Source of the DNA: a virus
Taxonomy: Duplodnaviria; Caudoviricetes
Length of the DNA: 64,000 nt
Virus record (IMG/VR): IMGVR_UViG_3300033070_001518
Location: 1 to 64,000 of that record
Strand: one strand, 5' to 3'
Positions within the stretch are counted from its first letter, which is position 1, and each line of letters begins with the position of its first letter. This document shows, in pieces, positions 3,997-64,000 of this stretch. The notes below the pieces were generated by a model. That model did not search any database. It was not told where the DNA came from and worked only from the letters and a program-made list of their open reading frames with translations. A program made the translations under genes and the position numbers.

Positions 3997-5541
3997 ATGA
4001 TTAAGAAGTATTCTACTTTCCTTGAAAGTATTAAAAGTCTGATTAACGAGTTTAACCAACAGGATAAGGAAGTTATTAAGAGACTCGATGAGTATTTTAC
4101 TATTGCGATCGAATATGAAATTTGCTCGACCGAGGACCCCGAAGAAGAACCTTCCTCAGATGAGGATAGTGCAATTGAAAATGCAATTGAACAAACAATA
4201 TTAGATCTTAAGAGGGGTAAAACTCTTGGTTCTTATGGTTTTTCGGAAGATAAATGGGATGAATCGAGATTTAAAGGAAATGAGAATAAACTACTGACAG
4301 ACTATCCAAAATTGGATACGATGTCTAAAAAGAAGAAAAAAGAATTGCACTCTAAGTATAAAACTTGGACGTGGTTACAAGAATTTTTCGACAATTTAAT
4401 ATCACTAGTTGATTTTGATGATCAAATTATAACTGATGAGAATTTAGATCCTGAAAACTACTCTGATGAATTGGAAATTTCCATTGTTAAGAGATTTTCA
4501 TATAACATTCAGTTGTTTGGATTTGCTCAAAATATAGATTATTTAAAAGAAAAGGCTGAGGAACATCTACCGAATTTCTGGGCAAATTGGGGAAGTACTT
4601 TTAAATTTGAATTGGAAGGTGACTCTGATAAGCAACGTATTTTAGAATTCTCACCTAAGACATATGTTAAAGGCATTTCACAGGGCATTAAACAGCTTGA
4701 AGATTTTTATAATGACTTTGAAAATCAAAAATATTGGTATTTTAATAACAGAACAGCTTTGCATATAAATGTTGGGGTTACAAGTAAAGTTAAATGGAAT
4801 CCTATTAAAGGATTGTTGTTGATGGGTGATTTTGGTAGAGATGAAAAAGGAAAAGTTCCATATGTATTTAAGGGTATTGAGTGGAGATATGGCAATAGAT
4901 TTACTGGATCGCTAATCGATGCAGTTAGAAAGAACCTTAAGGGTGATATTATGTATTCAGTGGAAAATCCTGAGACTGGTGAAGTTAAAGTTGGGGATCT
5001 TGAAAGGGATAAGGTTCAAGGTCAAATAAATTCTTTACAAGATGAGATTAATAGTATTAGGGGTTCAATGAAAAATCAACAAAAAAAGGAAAAGTCTGAA
5101 AGTAGAAAGAAAATTGATGAACTAGAATCTAAGATTAAACAAATACAGCCAACAATTTGGAATTTGGATATTAGAAAAAAAGGAGAAATTCTTAAACAGA
5201 AAGATTCATTAAAGCAAAATAAATCGTTATTGGATTTAAATGATATCCCGGCTTTTGAGGAATATTTCAATAGCTTTATAATTCAAGCTAATAAGGATTT
5301 TTATATTAAAGAATTTGGTATCAAGCTTGTTGAGATTGATAAAAATTACGTAGAATTCAGATATGTTGGGACAACTATATCAGATAATTTACTTGGTGGT
5401 GTTACTAAGCAAATGATGATAGATAAGATGTATTACTTTTGTTATATTGTTTATCTTATGACAAATTCAGATTATAAGAAGAAAGAATATCACAAAAAGC
5501 TTTATAAATTAGTTGAAGAGATCAGGGGATATGCAAATTAG
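3997..5541 (+). CDS. putative amidoligase (COOH-NH2 ligase / Amidoligase_2-like) with capsid-targeting-like N-terminus
   Basis: AIEYE, ELEGDS...LEFSP, TALHINVG and VEFRYVG in the family order; N-terminus MIKKYSTFLES. Confidence 0.65.
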   Translation: MIKKYSTFLESIKSLINEFNQQDKEVIKRLDEYFTIAIEYEICSTEDPEEEPSSDEDSAIENAIEQTILDLKRGKTLGSYGFSEDKWDESRFKGNENKLLTDYPKLDTMSKKKKKELHSKYKTWTWLQEFFDNLISLVDFDDQIITDENLDPENYSDELEISIVKRFSYNIQLFGFAQNIDYLKEKAEEHLPNFWANWGSTFKFELEGDSDKQRILEFSPKTYVKGISQGIKQLEDFYNDFENQKYWYFNNRTALHINVGVTSKVKWNPIKGLLLMGDFGRDEKGKVPYVFKGIEWRYGNRFTGSLIDAVRKNLKGDIMYSVENPETGEVKVGDLERDKVQGQINSLQDEINSIRGSMKNQQKKEKSESRKKIDELESKIKQIQPTIWNLDIRKKGEILKQKDSLKQNKSLLDLNDIPAFEEYFNSFIIQANKDFYIKEFGIKLVEIDKNYVEFRYVGTTISDNLLGGVTKQMMIDKMYYFCYIVYLMTNSDYKKKEYHKKLYKLVEEIRGYAN

Positions 5542-6064
5542 TTAAGTACTTTCTGAAGAAAAGATCTCTCAAATCCATTCCATATTGAGATGATAGTTCG
5601 GGGTGTCCTTGAAACCCCATCACTTTATTTTTGTCATTATAAATAGCTTTAACTATACCATCATTGACAATACCTTCATATCCACTTGGTATATTTTCTA
5701 TGAACCAACCGTGATTATATTCCATATCACCCTGTATTCCTTGAAATGTTAAAGATTCTTTGCCAATTTTTTTGATATTAAGTTCTTTTAATTTCTCACC
5801 TTCTATTATAGACATAATTTGCATTCCTAAACACACAGCGAATATTGGCTTGTTGCAAGTTTTTAGAAAAAATTTTTCTAGTGTGATATCCTCATCATCA
5901 GAAATATGAATATCTCCGCCAGATAAAACAACATAATCATATTGCATGGCATGTTCGATATTGAAGTGTGTGTAGTATACGATATCACATTTGTCAAAGA
6001 GTTTAGAAAGCTCTCCACTAAATCGACTGTCATGATTGATTATCAATCCTCTCATAGTGATCAT
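5522..6064 (-). CDS. class I glutamine amidotransferase
   Basis: VVLSGG, AVCLGMQI (catalytic Cys), FQGHPE (His-Glu). Confidence 0.85.
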   Translation of the reverse strand: MITMRGLIINHDSRFSGELSKLFDKCDIVYYTHFNIEHAMQYDYVVLSGGDIHISDDEDITLEKFFLKTCNKPIFAVCLGMQIMSIIEGEKLKELNIKKIGKESLTFQGIQGDMEYNHGWFIENIPSGYEGIVNDGIVKAIYNDKNKVMGFQGHPELSSQYGMDLRDLFFRKYLTNLHIP

Positions 6065-6085
6065 TTGATAGTATTTTTGACCATA

Positions 6086-6093
6086 CAAATATA
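6086..6093 (-). promoter_or_regulatory. Bacteroidota-type -7 promoter element
   Basis: TATATTTG on the minus strand 21 nt before ATG 6064. Confidence 0.4.
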
Positions 6094-6121
6094 GTAATAA
6101 AATTCCAAATATTATGAGAAT

Positions 6122-6556
6122 CTATTTTTTGTTATCTTCTACAGATTTGGATTTCAATCTTGATGACCTCCTTGAATGTTGGATCCGCCTATCTTCTTGA
6201 ATAATTGGTTCTTGGCATTTTTCATATGTAAAATCCATATAGAATTCGAATTGGGCCATTGATGGTGGGGGCAATGGCTTTATGGAAATTAAATCTCTTG
6301 AAACTAAACCTGATGCTGATGAGTAATCTGGGTGATCTTGAATTTTTGTTTCCTTGAAATCAACATCTTCAACAATTGATTTAATTTTATTATCTCTATT
6401 TATCAACTTGATCTCTGATTCGATTTCTTCCATTTTTTCTTTATTTCCTAGTGTAATACTCCTAATCAATGGGAGACCAATAGAATTAAATTGGGATTGA
6501 GTTCCTGATAAAGATATTTGATCTTTGTAGAATTTTTCGTATTCGTCAATATTCAT
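6122..6556 (-). CDS. hypothetical protein
   Basis: 144-aa ORF carrying an internal RDNKIKSIV copy of the shared tag. Confidence 0.65.
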   Translation of the reverse strand: MNIDEYEKFYKDQISLSGTQSQFNSIGLPLIRSITLGNKEKMEEIESEIKLINRDNKIKSIVEDVDFKETKIQDHPDYSSASGLVSRDLISIKPLPPPSMAQFEFYMDFTYEKCQEPIIQEDRRIQHSRRSSRLKSKSVEDNKK

Positions 6557-6567
6557 TATAATTATAA

Positions 6568-6919
6568 TTATTTCTTATAATTTGTTTCATTCCTCTTTAA
6601 CCACAGAAAGAAATCTTGAGCGTATAGTCTTTTATTTCCTTCACGACCATTGGGTATCATTCCGTATGTGCCATATGATGGGTCACTCTGCTTCATTAGT
6701 ATAAACTCATTATTTATCCACGTAGTTAATTTTTCGTTAGATATGCTAGATGTGTTTATGGTGTTATATCCTCAATTTAGCCAATTGAGGCAAGTTTTCT
6801 AACTTGGTCAGGTATTCTTGATTATTTCTTATTATTGTTAGTATTGGGTCTATTACCTCTTTCTCAAATTTAAATCTATTATTAAGTTTGTAGGATTCGT
6901 AAGTTCTTAGGAACTTCAT
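6568..6919 (-). pseudogene. frameshifted putative internal head protein
   Basis: MKFLRTYES...LAKLRI* (6919-6764) continues in the +1 frame as GYNTINTSS...KRNETNYKK* (6771-6568); the ATG overlaps the upstream TGA. Confidence 0.6.
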
Positions 6920-7221
6920 AGTTTATAAATTTTCTTTATGGTGTCTAATAGTAAATTTTCATCTTTAGTTGATAGATTTTCTATAAATTCTTTCCTGAAC
7001 CAATCAATTATCCTTTCGTAGACAATTTCTTCAGCTTCCGCATTGCTATTTTCCATATACCAAGATAAATCATCAGAGTATTCATCATCAACCCAATTTG
7101 GCCATTCCTCGCTGAACATTTCCTGGACTCTATCGTTTGAAAAATTTTCTTTGATTTTGGATATTGCAAAATCCAAATTGAATTCTTGAATAGATTCATT
7201 GAATTTTTTGATATGGGTCAT
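6916..7221 (-). CDS. putative internal head protein
   Basis: N-terminus MTHIKKFNES; acidic protein. Confidence 0.6.
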   Translation of the reverse strand: MTHIKKFNESIQEFNLDFAISKIKENFSNDRVQEMFSEEWPNWVDDEYSDDLSWYMENSNAEAEEIVYERIIDWFRKEFIENLSTKDENLLLDTIKKIYKL

Positions 7222-8132
7222 TTTAATTTTATTTTTATGTAGATCCAGAATTTATTAGCATATACACTTATTAGGGTATTGTCAGACCATTTATAGTTAG
7301 ATAGAAATTCTTTAGCACTTTCTTTGAATTTTATTAAATCTTCTTCATTTAATTTACCCATATTCCAATTTCCATATCCGTAATATCCGAATGTTATTAT
7401 TTTATCTTGGACTTGTGGAATCATTTTTTGCTCAAAATATTCTAATTTAAATTTATCCATTTCAGACTTTATCTTTCCTAATAAGATTATGTCATTATAT
7501 GATAGGTCTGAAATTACCTTTTTGAAAGTGGAGATAGATTTTAGGTCGGATGTCTTTATCCAATTTAATACAGATGTTTTCAGTTGAAAGGATCCTATTT
7601 TATTAAATTTATCAGCTATAATATACCCATATTCGAGAGATCCATTTGTGGTTACTCCGAAATATAGTTTCATATCTGGCTCATAGTTTATCTCAGTTAT
7701 TTGTAATGACTTGAATCTTTTAAACACTGATTCAACTTTTAGATAGTCTAATTTTTCAAATTTAAATACGAAGAGGAAGTTATTTGGAATTTCTTTGGAT
7801 GGTTGATTTTCTTTTAATCCGAGTGCTGTTAGGCATTTTAAAAATGTTGTAAATACTCCCTTCCCATATGACTCATTTATTTCTGCTGATGTTGTTATTT
7901 CTGGTTCGCTGTCGGATCCATTTATGTGTGATTCGACTCTCTTCAAGAGCTGAATTTTTTCATAATCGTCTAATACATTGACTGAATTCGATACTCTAAT
8001 TTTTGGATCAGAATTTTTTGTATATTCTCCTACTAGAGATTTAATAAAATCGTCATCACATAGGGACTCAATATACTCTCCTAGGGTATTATATTTTCCA
8101 TATTCTGAGAATTCAAAATATTTTTTGATCAT
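7218..8132 (-). CDS. putative internal head protein
   Basis: N-terminus MIKKYFEFSE, internal INES, late octamer upstream. Confidence 0.6.
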   Translation of the reverse strand: MIKKYFEFSEYGKYNTLGEYIESLCDDDFIKSLVGEYTKNSDPKIRVSNSVNVLDDYEKIQLLKRVESHINGSDSEPEITTSAEINESYGKGVFTTFLKCLTALGLKENQPSKEIPNNFLFVFKFEKLDYLKVESVFKRFKSLQITEINYEPDMKLYFGVTTNGSLEYGYIIADKFNKIGSFQLKTSVLNWIKTSDLKSISTFKKVISDLSYNDIILLGKIKSEMDKFKLEYFEQKMIPQVQDKIITFGYYGYGNWNMGKLNEEDLIKFKESAKEFLSNYKWSDNTLISVYANKFWIYIKIKLK

Positions 8133-8144: not shown

Positions 8145-8696
8145 CTACTTCTTAATTGCTAAAATTTCTAGCCAATTGCTTTGATTATCATAAAGAATTC
8201 CATTTTTAACTTGGTTGCTAATAATATTGAAATTTTTTTCAACTAGATTTGTCCAATCATTTTTTGATAGAATAATCTTACCTGTGGGTATATCATTTAC
8301 TAATTTTACCGAAAATAGTAAATATTTAGATATTCTATGAATTTCTGAGAAAATATTCTCCAACTCCTCTAAAGTGAAGTAGTGTAGTCCCAATCTAGAA
8401 TATGTTAGATCAAATTCATTATTTCTAAATGGGAATTTATTCTTGGTGTTATGATTTATACAATTTATTCCAATTTTAATAGCATTTTCAACATAATCAT
8501 TATTTATTTCTGTTGCTTTTATATCAAATCCTAAATTTTTTAGGTATAAAGCATCTGATCCGTTTCCACAAGAAATTTCTAGAATTTTAGATGGTGGGCT
8601 TATCACAGATTCAATTTTTTGAATCATATCCATGTCTATATTATTTTCTAGTTTTAGAAGAGATTCTTTTATAAATTGTCGATATCCCTTTATCAT
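8145..8696 (-). CDS. class I SAM-dependent methyltransferase with capsid-targeting-like N-terminus
   Basis: ILEISCGNG, FPFRNNEFDLTYS..LHY; N-terminus MIKGYRQFIKES. Confidence 0.8.
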   Translation of the reverse strand: MIKGYRQFIKESLLKLENNIDMDMIQKIESVISPPSKILEISCGNGSDALYLKNLGFDIKATEINNDYVENAIKIGINCINHNTKNKFPFRNNEFDLTYSRLGLHYFTLEELENIFSEIHRISKYLLFSVKLVNDIPTGKIILSKNDWTNLVEKNFNIISNQVKNGILYDNQSNWLEILAIKK

Positions 8697-8697
8697 T

Positions 8698-9462
8698 TCA
8701 TTTTGTTTTTATTCTTTCCATTTGGAATTTTTTAATATCTACGTATTTATTATCTTTCAGAAATTGAATTACCTTTTGTAACATTTCCATCATTATTTCG
8801 CAATCCGCTAGTCCATCATGATATCCAGACATATTTATTCCCAAAGATGGTCCTATTTTACTTAACGATGATGATACTAGACCATTATCTCTATCTGATG
8901 TTCCGATTCGATTTATCATTTCTTGGTATTTAATATCGCCTTCAGCCAATGATTGAAGAGTTGGTATGTAAAATAATTGAAGTATTTGCTTAGTATCTAT
9001 TATTTCATTTTGGAATTTTATATCTGATCTAGTGTTGAGAAATCTCATATCAAACGAAGCGTTTTGTATGACAAAATTAGAATTCTCGTATTTTGATATA
9101 AATGATAAAAACGAATTTAAGACATCATTTTCTTCGAGATATGTATGATCACCACTACCATACCTATTAAATGATAAGATTTTTTTAATCTTTGAATCTT
9201 TCCGATTGAATATCGATTTTGTTTTATCTGTTAGTTTTATCTTTTGATTGAATGTTTCAATTTTTTTGAATGAGTTCGATTCAAAATCATATTTTGTTGC
9301 TATACAAGATACTTGTGTTATTTGTATTTCATATGGATCGGATGGGAGACCGGTGGTTTCTAAATCTAAAAAAATCCAATTGTTTTTGGATTTTGATTTT
9401 AACCATTCTAATAAATCAGAAATAGATTTTCCCCAGAATTTATGCTCAAATAAATGGTTCAC
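8698..9462 (-). CDS. DEDDh 3'-5' exonuclease (DnaQ-like)
   Basis: IFLDLETTG, QNASFD, HDGLADC motifs. Confidence 0.85.
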   Translation of the reverse strand: MNHLFEHKFWGKSISDLLEWLKSKSKNNWIFLDLETTGLPSDPYEIQITQVSCIATKYDFESNSFKKIETFNQKIKLTDKTKSIFNRKDSKIKKILSFNRYGSGDHTYLEENDVLNSFLSFISKYENSNFVIQNASFDMRFLNTRSDIKFQNEIIDTKQILQLFYIPTLQSLAEGDIKYQEMINRIGTSDRDNGLVSSSLSKIGPSLGINMSGYHDGLADCEIMMEMLQKVIQFLKDNKYVDIKKFQMERIKTK

Positions 9463-9815: not shown

Positions 9816-10541
9816 ATGAAATACCTAAAGACATTCAGATTATATGAATCTATCATTGTTCCTGATATGATCGATAGTGATATGGAAATCGAATCATATG
9901 ATGATTTAGTTAGATATGGCGAACAGAATGGATTTGATGTTGTTGAATATGATGAGTTCTATTCATCATTATCTGATGTGGATAAAAAATCTGCTCCCCC
10001 AGAGCGAGGAGGTCCCCCATTTTTTGCACTTTTCCACCCAATTAGAAAGAAACCGATGTTTGTTGTTTCGGATAAAATGTTTTTTGATGGGATGCCAATG
10101 CCACCGCCTCATATGATGGGTAGAATGGGAATGCCTCCGGGAATGCCTCCAATGCCACCCACAGGACGAGGAATGCCACCAAGAATGGGTGGACGAGGTC
10201 CATTGGGACCACCTCCGCGCCCACCATATAAAGAAATTATTAATGATATTATGGGACATGAGATGATTCATAAATCTCAATCCGAAAGAAGGAGAATAGA
10301 ATATTCCTTGCCTAGTCCTACTGATACAAAGAAGTATTTTTCTAATAAAGATGAGGTTATGGCTTTTGCTTGGTCAATAGCTAATGAGATATCAAAAGGG
10401 TGTGATTCTATTAAAGATTGTCTTAGAAAATTAAAAACTAATAAAATATGGATTGATATTACAAAGAATTGTGATGTTAAGACACAAAATAGGTATAAAA
10501 AATATATTTATTTATATCTAGAAGATAAATTTCAAAAGTAA
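9816..10541 (+). CDS. zincin-like (HExxH) protein with a Pro/Gly/Met-rich insertion and capsid-targeting-like N-terminus
   Basis: MKYLKTFRLYES; GHEMIHKSQ...YFSNKDEVMAFA; low-complexity stretch at about 10088-10226. Confidence 0.6.
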   Translation: MKYLKTFRLYESIIVPDMIDSDMEIESYDDLVRYGEQNGFDVVEYDEFYSSLSDVDKKSAPPERGGPPFFALFHPIRKKPMFVVSDKMFFDGMPMPPPHMMGRMGMPPGMPPMPPTGRGMPPRMGGRGPLGPPPRPPYKEIINDIMGHEMIHKSQSERRRIEYSLPSPTDTKKYFSNKDEVMAFAWSIANEISKGCDSIKDCLRKLKTNKIWIDITKNCDVKTQNRYKKYIYLYLEDKFQK

Positions 10542-10552: not shown

Positions 10553-11065
10553 ATGAAAATTATCAGAGCTAGACTTAAGCCACAAAAGGGAACTACCTAT
10601 GAGTTCATTTCTGTGAAGGGTAGAATACGTGGTTTGATAGAAAAAAATAAGGGGGATATTTTTGATTTTGTTATAGATAGTGGTGGTCGAAAAGCGATTA
10701 AGTCCTTTGGTCCCGATGATATAAATTCTGAATTGGTTGGTAAAGAAATACCAATTATTGATAAAGATGTTGTTGCTAAATTTAATGAAGATGGTACTAT
10801 TGAGATAGTTCAAGAATTAAAAGAGGAGGCTCTTCCAAGACAATCGACCGTTAATCAACTTAAGAGGATAAGAAAATTGACAAAGGGGATTGATATTGGT
10901 GATAGAGTGTCTAAAATGAACAAAGAGGGATCTAATATTCATTATATTCATAATCCAATTGATACTGGAATTGAGTCCTATGAGGATTTTGAAAGACACA
11001 ATAGGAAATTTATTCCAGGTTGGAATCTTAAGCATTTGAAGTCACCATTTAAAAATGAAAATTAG
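10553..11065 (+). CDS. hypothetical late protein
   Basis: 170-aa ORF behind a late octamer. Confidence 0.7.
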   Translation: MKIIRARLKPQKGTTYEFISVKGRIRGLIEKNKGDIFDFVIDSGGRKAIKSFGPDDINSELVGKEIPIIDKDVVAKFNEDGTIEIVQELKEEALPRQSTVNQLKRIRKLTKGIDIGDRVSKMNKEGSNIHYIHNPIDTGIESYEDFERHNRKFIPGWNLKHLKSPFKNEN

Positions 11066-11492
11066 TCTTTTTGAGAAGTTCAAATTCGAAAGAAATTGTG
11101 ATTCTTTAAGAGATATTTATTCGGATATTGAAGATGATTTAAATATCATTTCTTTAAGAGTACGAAGTTCATTTGTATCTCAATATTATAATCCCAATTA
11201 TCATGATCCTAAATGGGATAATTTTGATCAACCACCATCCCTAGTGTGGATTTGTGATCAAATGAGAAAGAATAATTTTGGATTCACAATAAAAACTATG
11301 GATATAAAAAAAATACCACTTTGTATTTTAACTATAGATCATCTAAATAGAATAGACCAATTGAAATTGGATAAATTAACTAGAAGATCTAAGGAGGATG
11401 GATTTTTTCAAATTGCTGATACTAGAAGCGTATGTAGAGGTGATATTTGTAAAAGAGCTTTTATATTTATACACGAAGAGTATTTTGTATAG
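11055..11492 (+). CDS. putative internal head protein (acidic N-module family)
   Basis: MKISLFEKFKFE followed by LRDIYSDIEDDL. Confidence 0.55.
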   Translation: MKISLFEKFKFERNCDSLRDIYSDIEDDLNIISLRVRSSFVSQYYNPNYHDPKWDNFDQPPSLVWICDQMRKNNFGFTIKTMDIKKIPLCILTIDHLNRIDQLKLDKLTRRSKEDGFFQIADTRSVCRGDICKRAFIFIHEEYFV

Positions 11493-14197: not shown

Positions 14198-16915
14198 ATG
14201 AAGCAATCTAGATTTATTAACATAGATAAAAATATTTTAATAGAATATATTTATGATGATGATAACCTAATTAGTGAAGCATATAATATTTTATTCAATA
14301 CTAAGACGGGGATTCCTGCTTTCACATCATATTATGATAGCGAGGGTAATAATAATTTGTCTAGTAATGCCTATAATATAGACCCAATAAATGATAGATG
14401 GGGCCCAATAATATTAGATCCTAGTGTTCCTGATAAGATAGATGATAATGTTGGATCTTTGCAAGTGCGAAATTTTCCATCATCAATTCCCATCAGATAT
14501 GACACAGTAAAAGTCCATATACCCATAAATTGGACATTTGGTGATTATAAGGGATTTTATATTCGGATTTATACCTATGATTTCAATAATGATAAAGAAG
14601 TTGATTTTTCTAATTATTATTTTGATGTTAGTAGTGTTGATCAAAGTTACCAAATGGAATTTTCATCTCCCATATTGATGATAAATGAAAAACAATGGGG
14701 CAAATATCTAAGAATAGATTTTCCATCCCCAACAAAGGTATCCGATCAAAGAGTTAACGGATCTACAAAAGAAAATACTATAAATTATAATTTTAATTCT
14801 GGAATTGGTATTTCAAAAAATGCTCCAGTATTTATTGATTTTCATTTTATTGAGAGGATTGATTTTATAAATGGGAAAAAGTTTTTTATTTTAACCCCAC
14901 GAATTACTACTAGCGTACCACAGACTCCAGATTTTGAAAATATTGGAGTAGTCATCGAGCCATCTAGTCAAGGAGATTATTTTGTTATTTATGGTATTTA
15001 TAATGGTAGCTTGGCAGAGTTGAACATATTTTTAAATGAATCTTATTATCTTGGTAATAGATATTATCTAGAATATACAATAGACTTATTCGAAAAAAAT
15101 ATAAAAACTAAATCCCAAACATATATAGTTACGGAAAATTTTAATCAGCCTATTGAGTATCGACCCATTATAAAGTACTCAACAACAACTGCAGTTATTG
15201 ATGTTACTATGAAGTTAATAGATAACATAAATGGTGCTCAAATATCAAGAAGATCTTCTTGGGGGATAAATGTGGAAAATATCTCTAAGTATTCTAGGAG
15301 CCTTTCTAAGATAAATCTAAGAAAGGCTTTAAGAACCGAGGTTCATAATATAAAGGATGTATTGCAACCAACTATTAGTAATAATCCATTTGGAACAAAA
15401 CCAATTCTTATACTTGAGAAATTACCATTTAACATATATTCTAATGATTACACTGTTCATACTGGATCAGATAATATTATTTTTGAAAAGGTTAATTGGA
15501 TGGGATTGAATAAAATTATTGTTCCTTTATACCCATTTGATAATATTTTGAAATTTTCAATTCTAGAAAAGGGTGGTTTTTTGGGATATCAAGTCTATGA
15601 TTTAAATAGAGTTATTAATCTAAAACTAGTTGTTAAGTCTGATGATAAAGTCTTGGAATTTGATGTCTACAGAGATTCTGATGAAAATGAGTTTGAATTG
15701 GGAAAGGTTGTTTTTAAAATACCTAAAGTAAAATATAATGATTTGAAAAAGATTAATTTACTTGGGTATAATATATTTTATATAACTGGTGTTGATGAGG
15801 TTGAGAGTAAAATTATAATTTATAGTGGGTTGTTTCTTCCATATGATTCAGATTCGAATGTGAGAAAACTTGAATCAGATTTTTCCATTTCGCAGTTGCC
15901 AGCTCAACCTAATCCCCAAGTCGAAGAATCATTTGATGAGAAGAAAATAAAACAAATTTCTCAAATATCTAAAGAAAAGATTAAACAAAAAGGAGTTGGT
16001 AGTAAAATATCACTTTTGGTTGATTCTAAAAATAGGCAAAAATTCATTGATAAGATAGTACCTTCGACAATATTTAGAAAGTATGAGGATAGCCCAGTTA
16101 ATATACCAAATGATTGGCCTAGTCAATATTCAGAGCCACAAATATCCATCAATAGTGGTAAGATATGGGTACTGAAGAGAAAATCAGTTGCTATTTTAAG
16201 GGGAGAAGCTACATATGCTAAATCTAGAAAAATAGTTGAATATGAAATACAGCCTGGATTCCCAATTACAAATGGGGCTTTATTACAATTAGGTTTGACC
16301 ACAGGGGAGCCTATACGAAATGATGTGATTATGTTAGTTCCTGATGAGCAGGTTGGTAAGTATAAAATTGTTGATGGTCCTATTACTGTTTATGATCAAT
16401 ATATTGGTAAAAATGGCAATTTTAGAGGTGATAAACCAGTTAGTGAAAACTTAGCTGAATATAGAATTGTATCTGCTGATACAGAAGATCAGGCTATCCA
16501 GGAGTTTAAGGAAACATATTCAAATTTAAATAATGCAAACTATTGGAAAAAATCAGAATGGCCAAATTTTGCCGCTCATATATATGAGAAGGTCGAGATA
16601 AAGAATTTTGATGTCTATTATTATCCACAAGATACTCCAGTTAATTGCTATGGAACTCCTCCGAATATCTTATTTCCAGAGTCTATTCCATTAAATCAAA
16701 GAACTCCTTGGTATCCATATGTAACACCACAAAAGAAATGTGCAAAATTTATTGAACCTCATCCACACAAAGTTAGAAAAGTTGATTGGGTTATTAGACA
16801 AAATAGTTTGGATAACTTCAATAAGGTAAAATCCGGCATTGGTATTAACCTTGCTCCACCAGATCACACTGATGACAGAGATAGAATCTACTACGTGGAG
16901 GAAATTAATATATAA
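14198..16915 (+). CDS. large putative virion structural protein (paralog A)
   Basis: 905 aa, late octamer upstream; the N-terminal ~550 aa is colinear with 16919..18754; next to a tail gene. Confidence 0.6.
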   Translation: MKQSRFINIDKNILIEYIYDDDNLISEAYNILFNTKTGIPAFTSYYDSEGNNNLSSNAYNIDPINDRWGPIILDPSVPDKIDDNVGSLQVRNFPSSIPIRYDTVKVHIPINWTFGDYKGFYIRIYTYDFNNDKEVDFSNYYFDVSSVDQSYQMEFSSPILMINEKQWGKYLRIDFPSPTKVSDQRVNGSTKENTINYNFNSGIGISKNAPVFIDFHFIERIDFINGKKFFILTPRITTSVPQTPDFENIGVVIEPSSQGDYFVIYGIYNGSLAELNIFLNESYYLGNRYYLEYTIDLFEKNIKTKSQTYIVTENFNQPIEYRPIIKYSTTTAVIDVTMKLIDNINGAQISRRSSWGINVENISKYSRSLSKINLRKALRTEVHNIKDVLQPTISNNPFGTKPILILEKLPFNIYSNDYTVHTGSDNIIFEKVNWMGLNKIIVPLYPFDNILKFSILEKGGFLGYQVYDLNRVINLKLVVKSDDKVLEFDVYRDSDENEFELGKVVFKIPKVKYNDLKKINLLGYNIFYITGVDEVESKIIIYSGLFLPYDSDSNVRKLESDFSISQLPAQPNPQVEESFDEKKIKQISQISKEKIKQKGVGSKISLLVDSKNRQKFIDKIVPSTIFRKYEDSPVNIPNDWPSQYSEPQISINSGKIWVLKRKSVAILRGEATYAKSRKIVEYEIQPGFPITNGALLQLGLTTGEPIRNDVIMLVPDEQVGKYKIVDGPITVYDQYIGKNGNFRGDKPVSENLAEYRIVSADTEDQAIQEFKETYSNLNNANYWKKSEWPNFAAHIYEKVEIKNFDVYYYPQDTPVNCYGTPPNILFPESIPLNQRTPWYPYVTPQKKCAKFIEPHPHKVRKVDWVIRQNSLDNFNKVKSGIGINLAPPDHTDDRDRIYYVEEINI

Positions 16916-16918
16916 TTT

Positions 16919-18754: not shown

Positions 18755-18760
18755 TATATA
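18753..18760 (+). promoter_or_regulatory. putative late promoter octamer
   Basis: GATATATA 4 nt before ATG 18765. Confidence 0.55.
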
Positions 18761-18764
18761 AGTT

Positions 18765-42194: not shown

Positions 42195-42202
42195 AATATA
42201 TA
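42195..42202 (+). promoter_or_regulatory. putative late promoter octamer
   Basis: AATATATA 5 nt before ATG 42208. Confidence 0.65.
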
Positions 42203-42207
42203 TTAAA

Positions 42208-42402
42208 ATGGATATAAAGAATTGGAATCTTTATTTAGAATCTAGTAATGAATTAAATTTGGTAAAGGACATACTTACTGAGATTGAGGATAGTTTTGAA
42301 ATTTCAATTGAGTATGATGTTAGTGATGTAAATTGGTTTCTTATCGCCGATATCAATAATATGAGTGTTGATTCATCTAAAAATGATGATATGGTTAAAT
42401 AA
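42208..42402 (+). CDS. putative internal head protein (paralog 3, probably truncated)
   Basis: MDIKNWNLYLES...KDILTEIEDSF; only 64 aa versus about 150 aa for its paralogs. Confidence 0.5.
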   Translation: MDIKNWNLYLESSNELNLVKDILTEIEDSFEISIEYDVSDVNWFLIADINNMSVDSSKNDDMVK

Positions 42403-49410: not shown

Positions 49411-49895
49411 TAATAGTTAAATGATAGTAATTTTTTTATAGAATTTGAACTCAAAAAATCATATGTTCCGAACTGATCAGTAACTTGTGTTATTTCCAAT
49501 TCTTCAATATCTGATTTGATTTCTGTCATATACTTTTCTAAGTCTTTAAGACCTTTTTTATAGGATGGATCAGCGTTCCAATATTCAGGGAATTTATCTA
49601 AAAACTTATCTATAGCAATTGATAAAGTTTTTTTCCTTATTAGTACTTGATTTTGATTATTAATTGATTTGTTGGTCAATAGATCAACGATGTACGTATT
49701 AAATTTGTGTATTAGATTGTCCGTTTCTATGACTTTTAAAATACCAATTATCAAAGCATCCCTTTCTGTTATTTCAAATTCTTGATTTTCCTTTAGAATT
49801 TTTTCACCTTCTTTGTCAGATCCTAGAATATAATAAACATAATTATCCCAAGAACACCTCTTCACTATATCTTCCGGAGTGAGCAATATCTTCAT
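49410..49895 (-). CDS. hypothetical protein
   Basis: 161-aa ORF heading the grpE-dnaJ operon. Confidence 0.7.
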   Translation of the reverse strand: MKILLTPEDIVKRCSWDNYVYYILGSDKEGEKILKENQEFEITERDALIIGILKVIETDNLIHKFNTYIVDLLTNKSINNQNQVLIRKKTLSIAIDKFLDKFPEYWNADPSYKKGLKDLEKYMTEIKSDIEELEITQVTDQFGTYDFLSSNSIKKLLSFNY

Positions 49896-49942
49896 ATTAA
49901 ACGTAAGTTTATTAAATATATGAAAATATCACACCTAAGTTT

Positions 49943-49950
49943 AATATATA
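49943..49950 (+). promoter_or_regulatory. putative late promoter octamer
   Basis: AATATATA 5 nt before ATG 49956. Confidence 0.65.
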
Positions 49951-49955
49951 ATCCG

Positions 49956-51182: not shown

Positions 51183-51210
51183 AAAAGGGGGATGAAAATC
51201 CCCCTTTTTT
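51181..51210. terminator. bidirectional rho-independent terminator
   Basis: AAAAAAGGGGGAT-GAAA-ATCCCCCTTTTTT between convergent genes. Confidence 0.88.
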
Positions 51211-51217
51211 ACCCCCT

Positions 51218-53198: not shown

Positions 53199-53693
53199 AT
53201 GATTATTAAAAAATATTCTGAACACTCTGAATTTCAAAAAGATATTGATATGCTTAATAATATTCGAGATATTTTCATTGATGTTGAAGACGAGTTTAAT
53301 ATAGATTTGGAATATGAATTTATTAGTCCATCATATAATTCATCTAAAGATCCAAATTGGGTTTATATGAAATCATATGATGTTGATGGTAAAATGAATT
53401 ATGATCTTACTCAAAAATTTAACCCACTTCTTATAAATAAAAGATGGATGATTAGACATAACAACATATCTTCAGAAGAAAGGTCTCAAGGATTGCCGTT
53501 ATCAAAGCTGATTGTAAAATTACGATCTCTGATTGAGAGAGTCGAGCATGCTTATGACCTATCTACTCAACATGATCTCTCATATTGTACAGTAATTGAT
53601 CGCGGTAATTCTCGAGTTATCTATTTTAATTCTAGTGTTTTACCGAATACTGAAACTATGCGATCATTTATGTTTCAAATAGATTTTATTTAG
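53199..53693 (+). CDS. putative internal head protein (acidic N-module family)
   Basis: MIIKKYSEHSE...IRDIFIDVEDEFNI; palindromic AATATATATT at 53160-53169. Confidence 0.6.
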   Translation: MIIKKYSEHSEFQKDIDMLNNIRDIFIDVEDEFNIDLEYEFISPSYNSSKDPNWVYMKSYDVDGKMNYDLTQKFNPLLINKRWMIRHNNISSEERSQGLPLSKLIVKLRSLIERVEHAYDLSTQHDLSYCTVIDRGNSRVIYFNSSVLPNTETMRSFMFQIDFI

Positions 53694-56903: not shown

Positions 56904-57446
56904 TTATTCAGTTTCTATACCAAGATCTTCCTTCTTATCAAACTCGTCATCTAAATCAATTTTGAGAGATACTAGATAATCTTCATCAACACTATCTAGT
57001 TCAGTATTTCTTGTTATTTGCCCAATCAAGTCAAAATTTTCAAGGTCATATTTTTTGAATTTTATAAAGCATTTTTTGATATTTTTTGATTCTTTTTCCT
57101 CTTCCGGGACAGCTTCCTCTAATGGGATTGTTACGTATAGGTTATAGAGAAACTCATCATCTGAGAATTTGACTACTAAATTATCATATAGAGATGAGTA
57201 TTTGCTAATCTCTGAACTTTGAAGTTGTAATCCCAATTCCGAAAATGATATTTCTTTTTCAGATTTCTCCTGGTCTCGACCCTTTTTTAAGGCATCTGAC
57301 ATTGTGGATACTTCATCGCTATCAATCTCTCTTTCGAAAAATCCATCGATTTTTCTTTTTAGTTTTATAAGTTCCATTTTTATGTACTCCTCAGGAGTAT
57401 CAGACTGATTTTCCTTAATGAAATCAACAAATTTTTTAATTCCCAT
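56904..57446 (-). CDS. putative internal head protein
   Basis: MGIKKFVDFIKE; very acidic. Confidence 0.6.
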   Translation of the reverse strand: MGIKKFVDFIKENQSDTPEEYIKMELIKLKRKIDGFFEREIDSDEVSTMSDALKKGRDQEKSEKEISFSELGLQLQSSEISKYSSLYDNLVVKFSDDEFLYNLYVTIPLEEAVPEEEKESKNIKKCFIKFKKYDLENFDLIGQITRNTELDSVDEDYLVSLKIDLDDEFDKKEDLGIETE

Positions 57447-57498: not shown

Positions 57499-57684
57499 AT
57501 GATCAAAATGGATGTTAAAAAGTTCTCTAAAATTAAAGAAGAGCTTAAAAAATTTAGAAAATCAATCTTCGGTAAAAAAGATAAATTGAACATATGTAGA
57601 AAATATAATGTGACTTCGGATGAGGTCAACATTGTAATTAAATATTTAGCTTATGAGCGAAAAAAAGAAAGAACACAACAGTAA
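57499..57684 (+). CDS. small basic hypothetical protein
   Basis: 61 aa, Lys-rich. Confidence 0.55.
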   Translation: MIKMDVKKFSKIKEELKKFRKSIFGKKDKLNICRKYNVTSDEVNIVIKYLAYERKKERTQQ

Positions 57685-57904
57685 TCGTTACTATTTTAAT
57701 CTCTGTAGAAATTGTATAGATCTCTTTGGTAAAAAAAGATTAGAAGATTCATTTGGTTATAAAATAGAATTAATTTACTATATGTTTGATATGGAGTGCT
57801 CTATTTGTGAGTCATATTTTATTTGTGGAATGGGAATAGTAAAACCTCAACTAGATATTATAAATCGAGAGATAAAAATTGATTTTCTTCAAAACTCTCT
57901 TTGA
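57653..57904 (+). CDS. hypothetical Cys-containing protein, C-terminal REIKIDFL tag
   Basis: CRNC and CSIC pairs suggest a Zn ribbon. Confidence 0.6.
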   Translation: MSEKKKEHNSNRYYFNLCRNCIDLFGKKRLEDSFGYKIELIYYMFDMECSICESYFICGMGIVKPQLDIINREIKIDFLQNSL

Positions 57905-57937: not shown

Positions 57938-58471
57938 ATGATCTTAAAATTTAAGGATTATGATGACCTAGAAGATGATATCATCAATAACTTTGATGAC
58001 TTAAAAACTGAGTTTATAACAATTATCAGATTAAAAGATATTATCTATGAAAAAAATAACAAGGTTTTATTTGATCGTGGTTGGTGGGAGGTAGTGAAAG
58101 ATCTTTTGGATAGAAAGAATATTACTTTTAAAGTAGATCCATATGATAATTGGCTTTCCGTAAAAGATCCTGAGGTTAGGAAAATATTAGATTTATCGAA
58201 AGATATAATTGGTGTTGCTATTGTTTATGGAAGAGCGGATATGTTTTCAGAATCTGATGACTTACTAAAACTTAGAGACGGAAAAATAACTGAAAAGTTG
58301 GTTAAGAGATTAGAAGTTTATGGATTATATCCTATACAAGACCCATCCAAATGGTTCTATAACTCATTGGGTAGTCCTAGATTCTATTTTCCTGAGAAGC
58401 AAGCAGGATTATTCCTATGTGGTGAAATTTGGTTATACAAAGATAATTCAGAGTCCAGTTATGGATCCTGA
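57938..58471 (+). CDS. putative internal head protein
   Basis: MILKFKDYDDLE; late octamer upstream. Confidence 0.55.
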   Translation: MILKFKDYDDLEDDIINNFDDLKTEFITIIRLKDIIYEKNNKVLFDRGWWEVVKDLLDRKNITFKVDPYDNWLSVKDPEVRKILDLSKDIIGVAIVYGRADMFSESDDLLKLRDGKITEKLVKRLEVYGLYPIQDPSKWFYNSLGSPRFYFPEKQAGLFLCGEIWLYKDNSESSYGS

Positions 58472-58864
58472 TACGTGTCCACTAGATCCTCTTTGAACAA
58501 GATCATCTATTTGGTGGTTAGATAACTTTGATACTTTCTCCATTACTATTTTAGATACTACCACTCCTCTATTAGATAATTTATCATATTTTGTACCATC
58601 TCTTTTCGATTGAAAATAGATTTGGGCTTCTAATATTCCAGCCCTTTCTTCGATAGACATTTTTGGCGATTTTAAATCCTCACACACTTGAAAGCAAGCT
58701 TTCCAGAAATCTTTTGTATAATCCGTAGACTGCTCCATTTGGTCTACTTTATGAATTTTATTAGAAAATGTGGGATTTGATATTAATAAGGAAAGGGATA
58801 ATAGTAGATTTTGTTTCCATCCCTCTTCAACTTTATGATAGTTATTAAATTTTTTCAATCTCAT
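58448..58864 (-). CDS. putative internal head protein with a hydrophobic segment after the propeptide
   Basis: MRLKKFNNYHKVEE-GWKQNLLLSLSLLIS. Confidence 0.55.
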   Translation of the reverse strand: MRLKKFNNYHKVEEGWKQNLLLSLSLLISNPTFSNKIHKVDQMEQSTDYTKDFWKACFQVCEDLKSPKMSIEERAGILEAQIYFQSKRDGTKYDKLSNRGVVVSKIVMEKVSKLSNHQIDDLVQRGSSGHVSGSITGL

Positions 58865-58879: not shown

Positions 58880-59392
58880 CTAGACGATAGAATCTATCTT
58901 TCTTCCACGTATTATTCTAGGATCATTTATGAGATAATAACTAATTATCCATTGTGGTTGTAAGGTTGATAGATCCACATATTTGCAGATATAGTAGACT
59001 GCCAAGTCCTCATTTCTTTCCGTAGACAGAAAATCTATCAATTTCTCATCTGAGTCAAATTTTATTGATTTACATTCGTGTGAAATAGTTGATATTCCAT
59101 TTCCTGAAAACGATAATAATGAGAATATTCTTGAAGTAGTAACGACTCTAATATTATTTATTAAATGTGGTAATAATTTTTCAAACCAAGTTTCTGGACT
59201 TATGGAAGTTATTGTAACACCACCTGATCCATCATGTATACTATTTGAGCTTATTTCTTTACAATTTAGATAAAGTTTGATAAATGGTATAATATCGTAA
59301 TCATTAACACAGTAAATATTTCTTTGTCCTTTATCATCCTTTAACTTATATATGTCACATATGTCATTTATTTGATCTATTATACTAGGCAT
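58880..59392 (-). CDS. hypothetical protein, C-terminal RGRKIDSIV tag
   Basis: 170-aa ORF at the end of the operon. Confidence 0.65.
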   Translation of the reverse strand: MPSIIDQINDICDIYKLKDDKGQRNIYCVNDYDIIPFIKLYLNCKEISSNSIHDGSGGVTITSISPETWFEKLLPHLINNIRVVTTSRIFSLLSFSGNGISTISHECKSIKFDSDEKLIDFLSTERNEDLAVYYICKYVDLSTLQPQWIISYYLINDPRIIRGRKIDSIV

Positions 59393-61467: not shown

Positions 61468-61646
61468 AATTTTATGAATCGTTGGGTATTCTCATTTATA
61501 GTTTCATTCCATACTGAAAGAGGTCTTGCATGTACAGATCCAAAACTTAAAGATCGATAAATAACTAGAACTTCCTTGGTTTCTGTATGACTACACAGGC
61601 TTATTTTCCAAGTTTCTTTTGGTAGTGGATAATTAATCATTTTCAA
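61464..61646 (-). CDS. DUF1653-like protein lacking the HYKG segment
   Basis: HTETKEVLVIYRSL.FGS..ARP...RF. Confidence 0.55.
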   Translation of the reverse strand: MKMINYPLPKETWKISLCSHTETKEVLVIYRSLSFGSVHARPLSVWNETINENTQRFIKL

Positions 61647-61887
61647 TTTTTGTTATTTTTTCATTTCTTTGTTTTCTGACCTCTTTTATTTCCCATTCTC
61701 TTTCATAATATATCTTATTAGCTAAATCTTGAATTTTAGTCAATGCGTTATCAGGACTAATTGATCCACCATATATTCCCTTCTTTATATCATCACATCT
61801 AATTGATGTTAATATTGATAGAGCAGCGAGAAGCATTTTACCTTCATCCGAGTTAGTATCAAAATTATTGAATGTTTTTTCGATCAT
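61633..61887 (-). CDS. hypothetical protein, C-terminal RNEKITKI tag
   Basis: 84-aa ORF in the operon. Confidence 0.6.
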   Translation of the reverse strand: MIEKTFNNFDTNSDEGKMLLAALSILTSIRCDDIKKGIYGGSISPDNALTKIQDLANKIYYEREWEIKEVRKQRNEKITKIEND

Positions 61888-62615
61888 TTTAATCTCTCTT
61901 TGGTTATTCTAATTGATTTTTCGTTTATATCACAACCTATGAAATTTCTTTCCAATTCTTTGCACAGAACAGCACTAGTTCCAGATCCTAAGAAGAAATC
62001 ACCAACTAGATCATTTTTGTCTGTGGATGTCTCTATTATCCTTTTTATCAATTCTTTTGGTTTTTGTGTTGAATAACCCGTTCTTTCCTTTTTATCATTT
62101 TGTCCTAAAATGTTTATTTGCCAAACATCTCCCATTATTTTACCCCTTGGATTGTAATACTTTTCTTTTTCATATCCTCGTGGTGCTGATAATGAATATG
62201 GTTCTCTAATATTGTCTTCGTTGAATTTAAATTTATCTGTTTTTGACCATCTAAGAATTGTATCATGTCTATTACTAAAATTGCCTTTTTTTCTAGGTGA
62301 TGAGTTGTAATACCATATTATTTCATTTCTAAAGTTATTATATCCAAAAATATCATCTCCGATACATCTAATCCAATGATTTATTCTCCAATCCATTTGG
62401 AGATATACAGATCCAGTTGGTTTAAGAATTCTTTTCATTTCGGAAATTCTAGGAACGTAGAAATCATAAATTAGATTCTTTATTGGTTTTAAATCTTTAA
62501 AGTCTGGGAAATTATTTCCTGTTCCATAAAGAATATCCCCATAAATAAGATCGAGAGAATCTGTCTTGATTGTCTTCATAAATAGAAGATTATCTTCACA
62601 TTTAATTTCAAACAT
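61884..62615 (-). CDS. N6/N4 DNA methyltransferase (beta class) with a DILY variant of DPPY
   Basis: DLIYGDILYG, YLQMDWR, NEIIW, TQKPKEL, DFFLGSGTS. Confidence 0.85.
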   Translation of the reverse strand: MFEIKCEDNLLFMKTIKTDSLDLIYGDILYGTGNNFPDFKDLKPIKNLIYDFYVPRISEMKRILKPTGSVYLQMDWRINHWIRCIGDDIFGYNNFRNEIIWYYNSSPRKKGNFSNRHDTILRWSKTDKFKFNEDNIREPYSLSAPRGYEKEKYYNPRGKIMGDVWQINILGQNDKKERTGYSTQKPKELIKRIIETSTDKNDLVGDFFLGSGTSAVLCKELERNFIGCDINEKSIRITKERLK

Positions 62616-62895
62616 TGAGTAAATTTAATTTCAATTCTCTAATTATTGGTTTTAATTCTTCCATAAATTTATCCTCTAAGTGAAATTCAACTCCATATAA
62701 AGATGGATTATATACATATTGTTTTTCTCCGGTTTCAAAATTCCCACCATCTAAAATTAGTATTCCACGATTTATTAGATTTTGTGATAAATTGAATGAT
62801 ATTTCAATTTTAGGACTTCTTGACCACCAAAGCATGGAATTGCCATCAAGTATTATTAGCTCCCTTCCCCGAAAAATTTTTTCTACTATTAACAT
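62608..62895 (-). CDS. hypothetical protein, C-terminal RELKLNLL tag
   Basis: 95-aa ORF in the operon. Confidence 0.6.
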   Translation of the reverse strand: MLIVEKIFRGRELIILDGNSMLWWSRSPKIEISFNLSQNLINRGILILDGGNFETGEKQYVYNPSLYGVEFHLEDKFMEELKPIIRELKLNLLNV

Positions 62896-63857
62896 CTAGA
62901 GAACTTATCGTTCATTGAATTTAAAATTTCACTTGGAAAATTATTGATTCGTAGATCTATTAATTTCATATTTCCATTAATGTTTGATACAATTTTACTA
63001 ATCATGGATTTTGATAGTTTTTTCTTTTCGCAAATTATATCTGCTATATTTTCATATAGATCTGGGTCATCTAGAGAAACTTCACCAAACTCATTTATAT
63101 ATGAATCATATATAGATTTGGCTCCTTTAGCTCCTATTCCTCTTACTCTGCCATTTTTAGTGACTCTATATACTGATTGAATATTATCACTTGAATCTCC
63201 TGAGACTATTTTTATGAATAGAGACTCCATTTTATTTATTATATGAGTATCGTATTTTGTTTCGAATTTCTTAAAAAGAGATAAGAATTCTGAATTATCA
63301 TTTAAATCAAAAATATCATTACTTGGTAATTTTTTAATCTTGTCGATAATCATTTGATAGTTGTTTGGTAAAAATATTTTCTGTTTATTAAACATCTCAT
63401 TAGACATGAAATTTATCCACATGTTATCTAGATCGAATGATATTAATTGTTTGATGTCATAATCATTTGATACGATCATGGTTGATTTTTTTTCCTCGTT
63501 AAGCTTTTGAACCAAAAAGGCGATCCAATCATCTCCTTCAATTCTAGGATATTCCAGAATTTTAATGCTAGAAAGTCTAGATTTAAATTTCTCATATGTG
63601 GAGTAGACAAATTTCCAATCAATATCTGAATCTTTTTTTCGATGTGTTTTATATTCCGTTAGTAGTTCTTTTCTCCAAGATCTCTCTTTAGAATCAGAAA
63701 CTAAATAAAAATCACTGAACGGATATATTTTTCTATAATTTAGTATTGAATTTTCTAGTGCTTGATCTAGTGCTCCATAAAGAAGATTATTTTTATGTAA
63801 AGTAAATACTAATTTTGATAAAATATAATTTCCATCGATTATACATGACAATAGCAT
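62889..63857 (-). CDS. rnh: T4 RNase H-like 5'-3' exonuclease (FEN family)
   Basis: IDGNY, SWRK...YKTHR, EGDDWI, SNDYDIKQL, GDSSDNI. Confidence 0.88.
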   Translation of the reverse strand: MLLSCIIDGNYILSKLVFTLHKNNLLYGALDQALENSILNYRKIYPFSDFYLVSDSKERSWRKELLTEYKTHRKKDSDIDWKFVYSTYEKFKSRLSSIKILEYPRIEGDDWIAFLVQKLNEEKKSTMIVSNDYDIKQLISFDLDNMWINFMSNEMFNKQKIFLPNNYQMIIDKIKKLPSNDIFDLNDNSEFLSLFKKFETKYDTHIINKMESLFIKIVSGDSSDNIQSVYRVTKNGRVRGIGAKGAKSIYDSYINEFGEVSLDDPDLYENIADIICEKKKLSKSMISKIVSNINGNMKLIDLRINNFPSEILNSMNDKFSRC

Positions 63858-63902
63858 TATGAATGTTATTTTTTATTTATATGGATAATGAAAGAAAAGT
63901 CT

Positions 63903-63910
63903 TATATATA
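63903..63910 (+). promoter_or_regulatory. putative late promoter octamer
   Basis: TATATATA 5 nt before ATG 63916. Confidence 0.6.
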
Positions 63911-63915
63911 CATTC

Positions 63916-64000
63916 ATGATCATTAAACTATTTGAGTATTTCAATGAGTCTCCAACAAAAGATGATTTTTTGGAATCATTTCAAGACTACACTGATTTAT
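63916..64000 (+). CDS. partial putative internal head protein
   Basis: MIIKLFEYFNESPTKDDFLESFQDYTDL..., running off the window. Confidence 0.55.
   Translation, partial: MIIKLFEYFNESPTKDDFLESFQDYTDL

Follow-up and report, generated by a model that had tools for sequence, protein, structure and literature searches.

A recurrent N-terminal tag resembling the T4 capsid targeting sequence on unrelated late proteins of a huge uncultured phage

Results

A shared N-terminus on late genes of a huge T4-like phage

We analyzed the first 64 kb (64,000 nucleotides, hereafter the window) of the 80,411-bp IMG/VR virus contig IMGVR_UViG_3300033070_001518, which has 103 open reading frames (ORFs) over its whole length, a GC content of 30%, and a completeness of 31% as estimated by CheckV. 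An earlier note on this sequence had listed 19 proteins that begin with a similar short peptide, hereafter the tag, and had likened it to the capsid targeting sequence (CTS) of phage T4. All 19 listed N-termini proved to be true ORF starts, 18 of them beginning with ATG. The claim that they follow one pattern held for 18; the remaining one, on a DEDDh exonuclease (8698-9462), is degenerate and lies behind a GTG start. The tag consists of Met, one to six residues rich in Lys and Ile, an aromatic residue, two residues of any kind, a second aromatic residue, zero to three further residues and a Glu that is frequently followed by Ser, and it ends at residues 8-14. A shorter form has a single aromatic residue beside the Glu. 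The aromatic pair (i/i+3) is present in 17 of 22 tags on the contig, and the other five include the short form and the weak exonuclease tag. Three further tagged genes lie past the window end, and all tagged genes are collected in Table 1.

Judging by its homologues, the contig covers part of the genome of a huge T4-like phage whose relatives include the “Mahaphage” genomes (642-735 kb). For its 905-residue late protein, the only matches are to uncultured huge phages (LR756502, 642 kb; LR756501/3, 735 kb; LR745206; and LR756504), besides a weaker one to a gene that sits among baseplate genes in Flavobacterium phage MaF61, which is T4-like. Homologues in LR756502 were found for 54 of the 103 contig ORFs, mostly in collinear order, and the contig encodes a gp32-like single-stranded DNA-binding protein. 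The wider group, defined by capsid protein, takes in Lak megaphages, Sphingomonas phage PAU and jumbo phages of Tenacibaculum, Chryseobacterium and Flavobacterium, and the host is probably a member of the Bacteroidota. Megablast against phage records gave no match. The phage is abundant in samples of sludge and wastewater, and wastewater metatranscriptome contigs cover the region in fragments from which transcript starts and strand are not readable. We also considered a giant eukaryotic virus, prompted by Hsp70, DnaJ, sugar enzymes, collagen repeats and the lack of Shine-Dalgarno sequences; this was rejected, as the nearest kin are uncultured huge phages and T4-like phages of Bacteroidota, which come with a gp32-like single-stranded DNA-binding protein and T4-type head genes.

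The tag is far more frequent than expected and is conserved in relatives

Written as a loose pattern, M-x(1-6)-aromatic-x-x-aromatic-x(0-3)-[ED], the tag fits 20 of the 103 contig ORFs, against 2.9 +/- 1.6 expected when residues 2-16 are shuffled; it fits 3.7% of windows placed at internal Met residues. Probable false positives of this pattern are a GT17-like glycosyltransferase (31208-32110) and the ORFs at 6122-6556, 61633-61887 and 77801-78361. The tag was also recovered without supervision: de novo motif discovery by expectation-maximisation on the first 21 residues of 956 LR756502 ORFs returned it in ~24% of them. Scored with a motif model, 162 of 920 N-termini of LR756502 reached at least 10 bits, against 0.28% of internal windows, and the tag total for this genome comes to 160-230 of 956 ORFs (17-24%). 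A model trained on LR756502 alone found nine contig N-termini of at least 8 bits, against 0.6% of internal windows. The shuffling and internal-window controls rule out chance and composition as the cause of the tags.

Tag status is stable across orthologues. All 10 pairs of tagged orthologues that the contig shares with LR756502 (37-54% identity) have kept it, with the tag sequences themselves differing, and untagged families remain untagged between the two genomes.

Tagged genes share a late box with head genes

A TATATA box (AATATATA) ends 4-7 nucleotides (nt) before the ATG of tagged genes (window 3984-63915 and relatives), a spacing that leaves no space for a 5' leader or a Shine-Dalgarno sequence. 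Co-occurrence of the tag with this late box, which the earlier note had proposed as a check, was borne out on the contig (odds ratio 17, p 8e-7). Box and tag can nonetheless be separated in both directions. Box genes without a tag number 6-8 on the contig, among them the three late genes at 14198-19364, and ~90 in LR756502; a box thus need not be accompanied by a tag. Conversely, several tagged genes lie inside operons as overlapping cistrons that have no box, and the tag is therefore independent of mRNA 5'-end position. One of these is the gene at 6764-6919, whose start overlaps the end of the upstream gene and which therefore does not stand at an mRNA 5' end. In LR756502, the AATATATA box is also found 20-30 nt upstream of the portal, protease and capsid genes, where an A-rich leader follows, and the tagged genes are therefore co-regulated with head assembly.

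Box and tag are both present in LR756501 and, on a smaller scale (~17-28 proteins), in a 270-kb IMG/VR genome that is 89% complete (G005). The cultured relatives Tenacibaculum phage PTm1 and Flavobacterium phage MaF61 have neither box nor tag, which makes them unusable as a test bed for tag function.

Selection acts on amino acids, and the tag is portable

Conserved tag positions show the same synonymous codon use as the genome at large, and the Ser that follows the Glu is written with both codon families (TCN and AGY). The distance from motif to ATG varies by up to five residues. At the last tag position, the predicted cleavage-site residue P1, the ratio of Glu to Asp in LR756502 is 97:26, against 390:462 at internal sites of the pattern (p 2e-12), and in the proteome Asp is the commoner of the two residues. 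Selection acts at the protein level, not on a nucleotide element.

Portability was assessed by trimming the first 18 residues from 254 tagged proteins of the contig and LR756502 and clustering the remainders with BLAST, which resulted in 222 clusters, 197 of them singletons. The Pfam domains found behind the tag on the contig are SAM (S-adenosylmethionine) methyltransferase, RNase_T exonuclease, RNA ligase 1, HNH nuclease and the TPM domain. LR756502 adds PPK2, CCA/polyA polymerase, lysozyme, 2H phosphoesterase, NUDIX, DEAD helicase, RNaseH-like and ankyrin, although a few of its Pfam-bearing tagged proteins may be false positives of the loose filter. The tag is thus a portable add-on on unrelated folds.

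RNA ligase 1 allows the boundary between tag and fold to be placed. Homology to the solved T4 Rnl1 sets in only at residue 31 of the query, aligned with T4 residue 12, and this leaves a 19-residue extension. In an AlphaFold2 (AF2) model based on 51 homologues, the predicted local distance difference test score (pLDDT) stays below 50 over residues 1-18, and the fold begins at about residue 20. Among 120 metagenomic homologues (51-83% identity), 106 are tagged, with variable sequence and a Glu:Asp ratio of 100:1, and distant IMG/VR homologues without a tag start exactly at the conserved body. Alignment, model and untagged homologues together indicate that the tag of RNA ligase 1 is a disordered add-on ahead of the fold and dispensable for it.

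The tag matches the T4 CTS core and a repeat in the relatives' scaffold

In T4, ten N-terminal residues of the internal protein IPIII are enough to bring foreign proteins into the head; targeting runs mainly through residues 4 and 7 and processing through residues 8 and 10, Asp at residue 10 blocks cleavage, and the gp21 protease cuts after [LI]-x-Glu (PMC9026906). The T4 CTS sequence is given in PMC8442874. It has Tyr, Phe, Ile and Glu at positions 4, 7, 8 and 10, and these four residues make up the conserved core of the tags described here. The tag of the gene at 49956 is identical to the T4 CTS at 7 of 10 residues, with the core at the same position numbers; this ATG has a box, whereas an in-frame ATG upstream at 49920 does not.

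T4-type head genes were found in three tagged relatives, with matches of the prohead protease to phrog_207 at 6e-28 and 5e-38. LR756502 encodes a portal (PF07230, 1e-57), a major capsid protein (PF07068, 4e-28) and a prohead protease of 699 residues (phrog_207, 6e-28; PF03420 weak and below the cut-off). Its capsid protein carries an N-terminal extension of ~85 residues that holds a tag-like site, and in T4 gp23 the stretch directly before the known cut fits the tag core pattern. The C-terminal half of the protease is a scaffold-like run of tandem 15-residue repeats (10-13 across LR756502, LR756501 and G005), each containing aromatic-x-x-aromatic-[IL]-x-Glu, followed by an acidic stretch and a conserved C-terminal domain. 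The core of this repeat is identical to the T4 CTS core at five of seven positions. A strict version of the core pattern occurs at 91 sites in the LR756502 proteome, of which 11 are in the protease-scaffold and 27 lie within ten residues of a protein's start, and the protease-scaffold is the only protein with more than two copies. The same repeats are present in the protease-scaffold of LR756501 and G005. The protease-scaffold of PTm1, a phage without tags, has no repeats.

Tagged genes and their neighborhood

The product labels that the earlier note had given to tagged proteins fared unevenly. Pfam supported the SAM-dependent methyltransferase (Methyltransf_25/11, 1e-9), the DEDDh exonuclease (RNase_T, 3e-6) and the RNA ligase (RNA_lig_T4_1, 2e-18). 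The label “amidoligase” for the protein at 3997-5541 is a lead only, as Atlas gave 0.91 to viral Amidoligase_2 clusters and Pfam gave no match. The same is true of “zincin-like” for the protein at 9816-10541, the basis of which is one HExxH motif and weak Peptidase_M78 look-alikes; the motif lies in a C-terminal domain separated from the tag region by a low-complexity linker of ~60 residues rich in Pro, Met and Gly.

Table 1. Tagged genes of the contig, untagged box-driven genes, and protease-scaffold loci of relatives. Numbers attached to residues are positions in the protein; distances are from the TATATA box to the ATG; bits are motif-model scores; orthologues are those in LR756502.
Locus (strand)	Length (aa, amino acids)	Product	Tag	Box and gene context	Further findings
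3997-5541 (+)	514	possible amidoligase	aromatic pair 5/8, Glu10-Ser11	box, 7 nt	orthologue tagged
6764-6919 (-)	51		short form, aromatic 7, Glu8-Ser9	last cistron of operon	12.2 bits
6916-7221 (-)	101		short form, aromatic 7, Glu9-Ser10	internal cistron	19.0 bits (contig maximum); orthologue tagged
7218-8132 (-)	304	no assigned function	aromatic pair 5/8, Glu10	box, 4 nt	second motif-like site ~10 residues further; orthologue tagged (40% identity)
8145-8696 (-)	183	SAM-dependent methyltransferase	Tyr5, Phe8, Ile9, Glu11-Ser12 (full T4-like core)		orthologue tagged (54% identity)
8698-9462 (-)	254	RNase_T/DEDDh exonuclease	degenerate only	GTG start	clear tag on orthologue
9816-10541 (+)	241	possibly zincin-like	aromatic pair 7/10, Leu9, Glu11-Ser12	box, 5 nt	14.2 bits; orthologue tagged
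11055-11492 (+)	145		aromatic pair 6/9, Glu12	second cistron after box-driven gene 10553-11065	7.6 bits
14198-19364 (+)	905, 611, 199	three late genes	none	box-driven	
41199-41645 (+)	148	small acidic protein	Trp5, Phe8, Asp10 instead of Glu	box, 6 nt	first of three tandem paralogues (41199-42402)
41642-42115 (+)	157	small acidic protein	Trp5, Phe8, Glu10-Ser11	translationally coupled to 41199-41645	
42208-42402 (+)	64	small protein, truncated paralogue	Trp6, Tyr9, Glu11-Ser12	box, 5 nt	
43441-43983 (+)	180		short form, aromatic 6, Glu8-Ser9	box, 4 nt	14.0 bits
49956-51182 (+)	408	no assigned function	Tyr4, Phe7, Ile8, Glu10	box, 5 nt	four paralogues/orthologues in LR756502, 4/4 tagged
53199-53693 (+)	164	small acidic protein	aromatic 6, Glu8 and Glu11	no exact box	11.2 bits
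54812-56011 (-)	399	RNA ligase 1	Tyr6, Phe9, Ile10, Glu12		
56904-57446 (-)	180		Phe6, Phe9, Ile10, Glu12	box	orthologue tagged (47% identity)
57938-58471 (+)	177		aromatic pair 5/8, Glu12 (weaker match)	box, 7 nt	
58448-58864 (-)	138		aromatic pair 6/9, Glu13-Glu14 (weaker match)	box, 5 nt	10.8 bits
63916-64000 (+)	230	start of gene reaching 64608	aromatic pair 6/9, Glu11-Ser12	box	second motif-like site ~9 residues further
67814-69733 (-)		TPM-domain protein	tagged	past window end	
71835-72392			tagged	past window end	
74464-75573			tagged	past window end	
LR756502 225272-227371		protease-scaffold fusion			
G005 97691-99937		protease-scaffold fusion			
LR756501		protease-scaffold fusion			

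Most tagged proteins have no match in Pfam or PHROGs, and they are mostly small, acidic, fast-evolving and without an assigned fold. The protein at 41642-42115, for example, has only two other homologues among 5.8 billion proteins, and its AF2 model (pLDDT 71, with the tag weakly modeled) gave no fold match in the PDB at E <=0.001. A second motif, [DE]-[IM]-[LF]-x-x-[LIV]-x-[DE], is found ~25 residues in on a subset of the tagged small acidic proteins; its carriers are the genes at 41199-42402, 43441-43983 and 53199-53693 and ~34 proteins of LR756502, about a quarter of tagged proteins. In the TPM-domain protein past the window end (Pfam, 5e-37), the tag is followed by a second Met and a hydrophobic segment like a signal peptide, with a membrane segment and a tail rich in Gly and Ser further on; the protein is either membrane cargo or the product of a mis-assigned start codon.

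Phage-encoded DnaJ (47353-48396) and Hsp70 (51218-53077, 78% identical to its LR756502 orthologue) are separated by small genes, and several tagged genes adjoin them. Sugar-nucleotide and glycosyltransferase-like genes fill a long stretch of the minus strand (19365-40918) that is syntenic with LR756502 440-465 kb and holds no tags apart from one false positive at the GT17-like N-terminus. The window also has three tRNA genes, Leu-CAA, Thr-CGT and Arg-CCT (72-152, 393-464 and 1180-1253). Past the window, an ORF cut by the contig end (78603-80411) has collagen-like Gly-x-x repeats and is homologous to a box-driven protein of 1477 residues in LR756502. Finally, a C-terminal motif, R-x-x-K-[IL]-[DN]-x-[IL], is found on small proteins (1254-1445, 57653-57904, 58880-59392, 62608-62895 and others), and this set does not overlap the N-terminally tagged set.

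Discussion

A proposed capsid-targeting propeptide

We propose that the shared N-terminus is a T4-type portable capsid-targeting propeptide cut by the prohead protease, a reading to which we assign a probability of roughly 0.6. The likeness to the T4 CTS put forward in the earlier note stands as far as the conserved positions, the Glu preference, the disordered add-on, and the T4-type head genes and protease-scaffold repeats of relatives are concerned; scaffold binding, cleavage, encapsidation and ejection of the tagged proteins we infer from sequence. In this model, tagged genes would be transcribed late from the same AATATATA box as the head genes, and the tag, as one copy of the scaffold repeat, would co-assemble with the scaffold core. 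The first 10-14 residues would bind the assembling scaffold core of the prohead through the i/i+3 aromatic pair. Once the shell has closed, a Glu-specific protease of the T4 gp21 type would cut after the conserved Glu, clipping the tag along with the scaffold and freeing the cargo within the head while scaffold fragments and tags leave. The cargo, including RNA ligase 1, the methyltransferase, the exonuclease, the HNH nuclease and many small acidic, fast-evolving proteins, would then be ejected with the DNA into the next host. The idea of an enzyme kit that acts before phage gene expression is plausible, because the tagged set has these four enzymes and the relative adds more (2H phosphoesterase, CCA/polyA polymerase, NUDIX and helicase).

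Several observations weigh against this proposal. Only six contig tags have [ILV] at P3, the first position of [ILV]-x-Glu; most have Phe or another residue there, or Leu at P2. The contig itself, being 31% complete, has no head genes, and the machinery is therefore deduced from relatives that share about half its genes. The tagged proteins are acidic, with a median isoelectric point without the tag of 5.6 on the contig and 5.3 in LR756502, and a few, such as the TPM-domain protein, look membrane-bound. The link between scaffold repeat and tag comes from one clade and one outgroup. One copy each of the ~229 tagged proteins of LR756502 would amount to ~5 MDa, far above any known head proteome. 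Given this scale, not every tagged protein need be packaged. Head capacity would probably not be a bar, as a 642-kb head could take tens of MDa by a rough estimate that assumes that protein fills a few percent of head volume, as in T4.

Other explanations of the tag

Among the alternatives, the one that survives best, though we consider it unlikely, is that the tag is a signal for some other late process outside the capsid, such as recognition by Hsp70/DnaJ, targeting to a site of assembly, degradation at a set time or cleavage that activates the protein. The phage's own Hsp70 and DnaJ adjoin tagged genes (47353-53077), the tag is basic and then hydrophobic, as are many chaperone and protease recognition motifs, and the number of tagged proteins is very large for head cargo. 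Such a signal, however, predicts neither the preference for Glu over Asp nor the position-wise match to the T4 CTS and the repeats of the motif in the protease-scaffold.

It is less likely still that the tag does load proteins and is cleaved but that most of the cargo is not injected, serving instead as auxiliary scaffold, inner body or DNA-packing aid, or being degraded and expelled as the scaffold is. A structural role would fit the identity of the tag with the scaffold repeat unit and the abundance of small, acidic tagged proteins of no known fold, and inner-body proteins of PhiKZ-like phages have cleaved propeptides (PMC5694885). Yet enzymes with cytoplasmic substrates (RNA ligase 1, methyltransferase, exonuclease and HNH nuclease) keep the tag across orthologues, and the small tagged proteins evolve very fast, like counter-defence proteins.

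We regard it as very improbable that the N-terminus is a by-product of expression signals, with the first codons belonging to the promoter or the initiation region and the mRNAs being nearly leaderless. This would account for the tight box-to-ATG spacing without Shine-Dalgarno space and for the association of tag and box, but not for synonymous codon use at the tag that is the same as genome-wide, the untagged box genes of the contig and LR756502, the tagged, translationally coupled internal cistrons without a box, or the variable distance between motif and ATG. Chance, AT-rich composition or descent from one protein family is hardly credible: N-termini at 30% GC are indeed rich in Lys, Ile, Asn, Tyr and Phe, three tagged genes (41199-42402) are tandem paralogues and about a quarter of tagged proteins have the second motif, but the shuffling and internal-window controls exclude composition, and 197 of 254 trimmed proteins lack a BLAST relative in the set, and the tag sits on unrelated Pfam folds.

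A possible starter proteome

A wider proposal is one that we hold tentatively, with the odds leaning against it. T4-like phages of the Mahaphage group may load a “starter proteome” of 100-200 proteins, about one-fifth of their genes, with the scaffold repeat unit as the tag and a repertoire that grows with genome size. This proteome would hold an RNA-repair and nucleic-acid enzyme kit along with scores of hypervariable small acidic proteins. Because the tag would be the scaffold's own repeat unit, any gene placed behind the late box and tag would become injected cargo, which suggests an evolutionary route by which new cargo is acquired.

Should the tag work as it does in T4, the injected proteins of a whole clade of uncultured huge phages could be recognized by one sequence rule, and part of what the many unassigned genes of huge phages do would be explained. 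Injected proteins would act before any phage gene expression, and would therefore be prime candidates for counter-defence or host takeover. Some tags are so close to the T4 CTS that the idea could be put to a direct test in T4 itself. To our knowledge, the receptor of the T4 CTS is still undefined, and the scaffold repeats are a concrete candidate for the binding partner of the targeting signal.

Comparison with known systems

The closest known system is the T4 CTS, to which the tag is likened by sequence. In both, an N-terminal tag of 10-14 residues is found on unrelated late proteins and has an i/i+3 aromatic pair followed by Glu, which a few of the tags here set in the [IL]-x-Glu of T4; the portal, capsid protein and protease of the relatives are of T4 type, and the cargo is fast-evolving. 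The systems differ in scale, with ~20 tagged proteins on this 80-kb fragment and 160-230 in the 642-kb relative, compared to 3-5 in T4. They also differ in cargo, which is mostly acidic rather than basic and includes enzymes such as RNA ligase 1; in P3, which is frequently Phe rather than Leu/Ile; and in the scaffold, which in the relatives forms one protein with the protease and consists of tag-motif repeats, features that T4 gp22 lacks. The T4 internal proteins IPI-III are small, highly basic and associated with DNA, and the tagged proteins are not basic; they would work like CTS cargo but stand outside the internal-protein class.

In the phiKZ-like giant phages phiKZ, 201phi2-1 and SPN3US, gp175/gp245 cut propeptides off head and ejection proteins. 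There, too, the phages are giant and their heads contain many internal proteins; cleavage after Glu falls to a diverged gp21-like protease, and the propeptides have been proposed to direct proteins to the prohead (PMC5694885, PMC9026906). Their propeptides, however, are mostly 80-130 residues long, differ from one another, end in [SAG]-x-Glu and are removed from ~8-19 proteins, whereas the tag described here is short, stereotyped and far more numerous.

A more distant parallel is the cargo-loading peptide of encapsulins, a short portable peptide that directs unrelated enzymes into a shell of the HK97 fold. Unlike the tag, encapsulin peptides are usually C-terminal, bind the shell protein and are not cleaved, and their cargo is not delivered to another cell. 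A full-text literature search found no paper that links capsid targeting to huge phages or megaphages. The proposed mechanism is familiar, both the T4 CTS and the long phiKZ-like propeptides being known; what differs here is the scale, the cargo, which is acidic and includes enzymes, and the scaffold, which is made up of copies of the tag motif.

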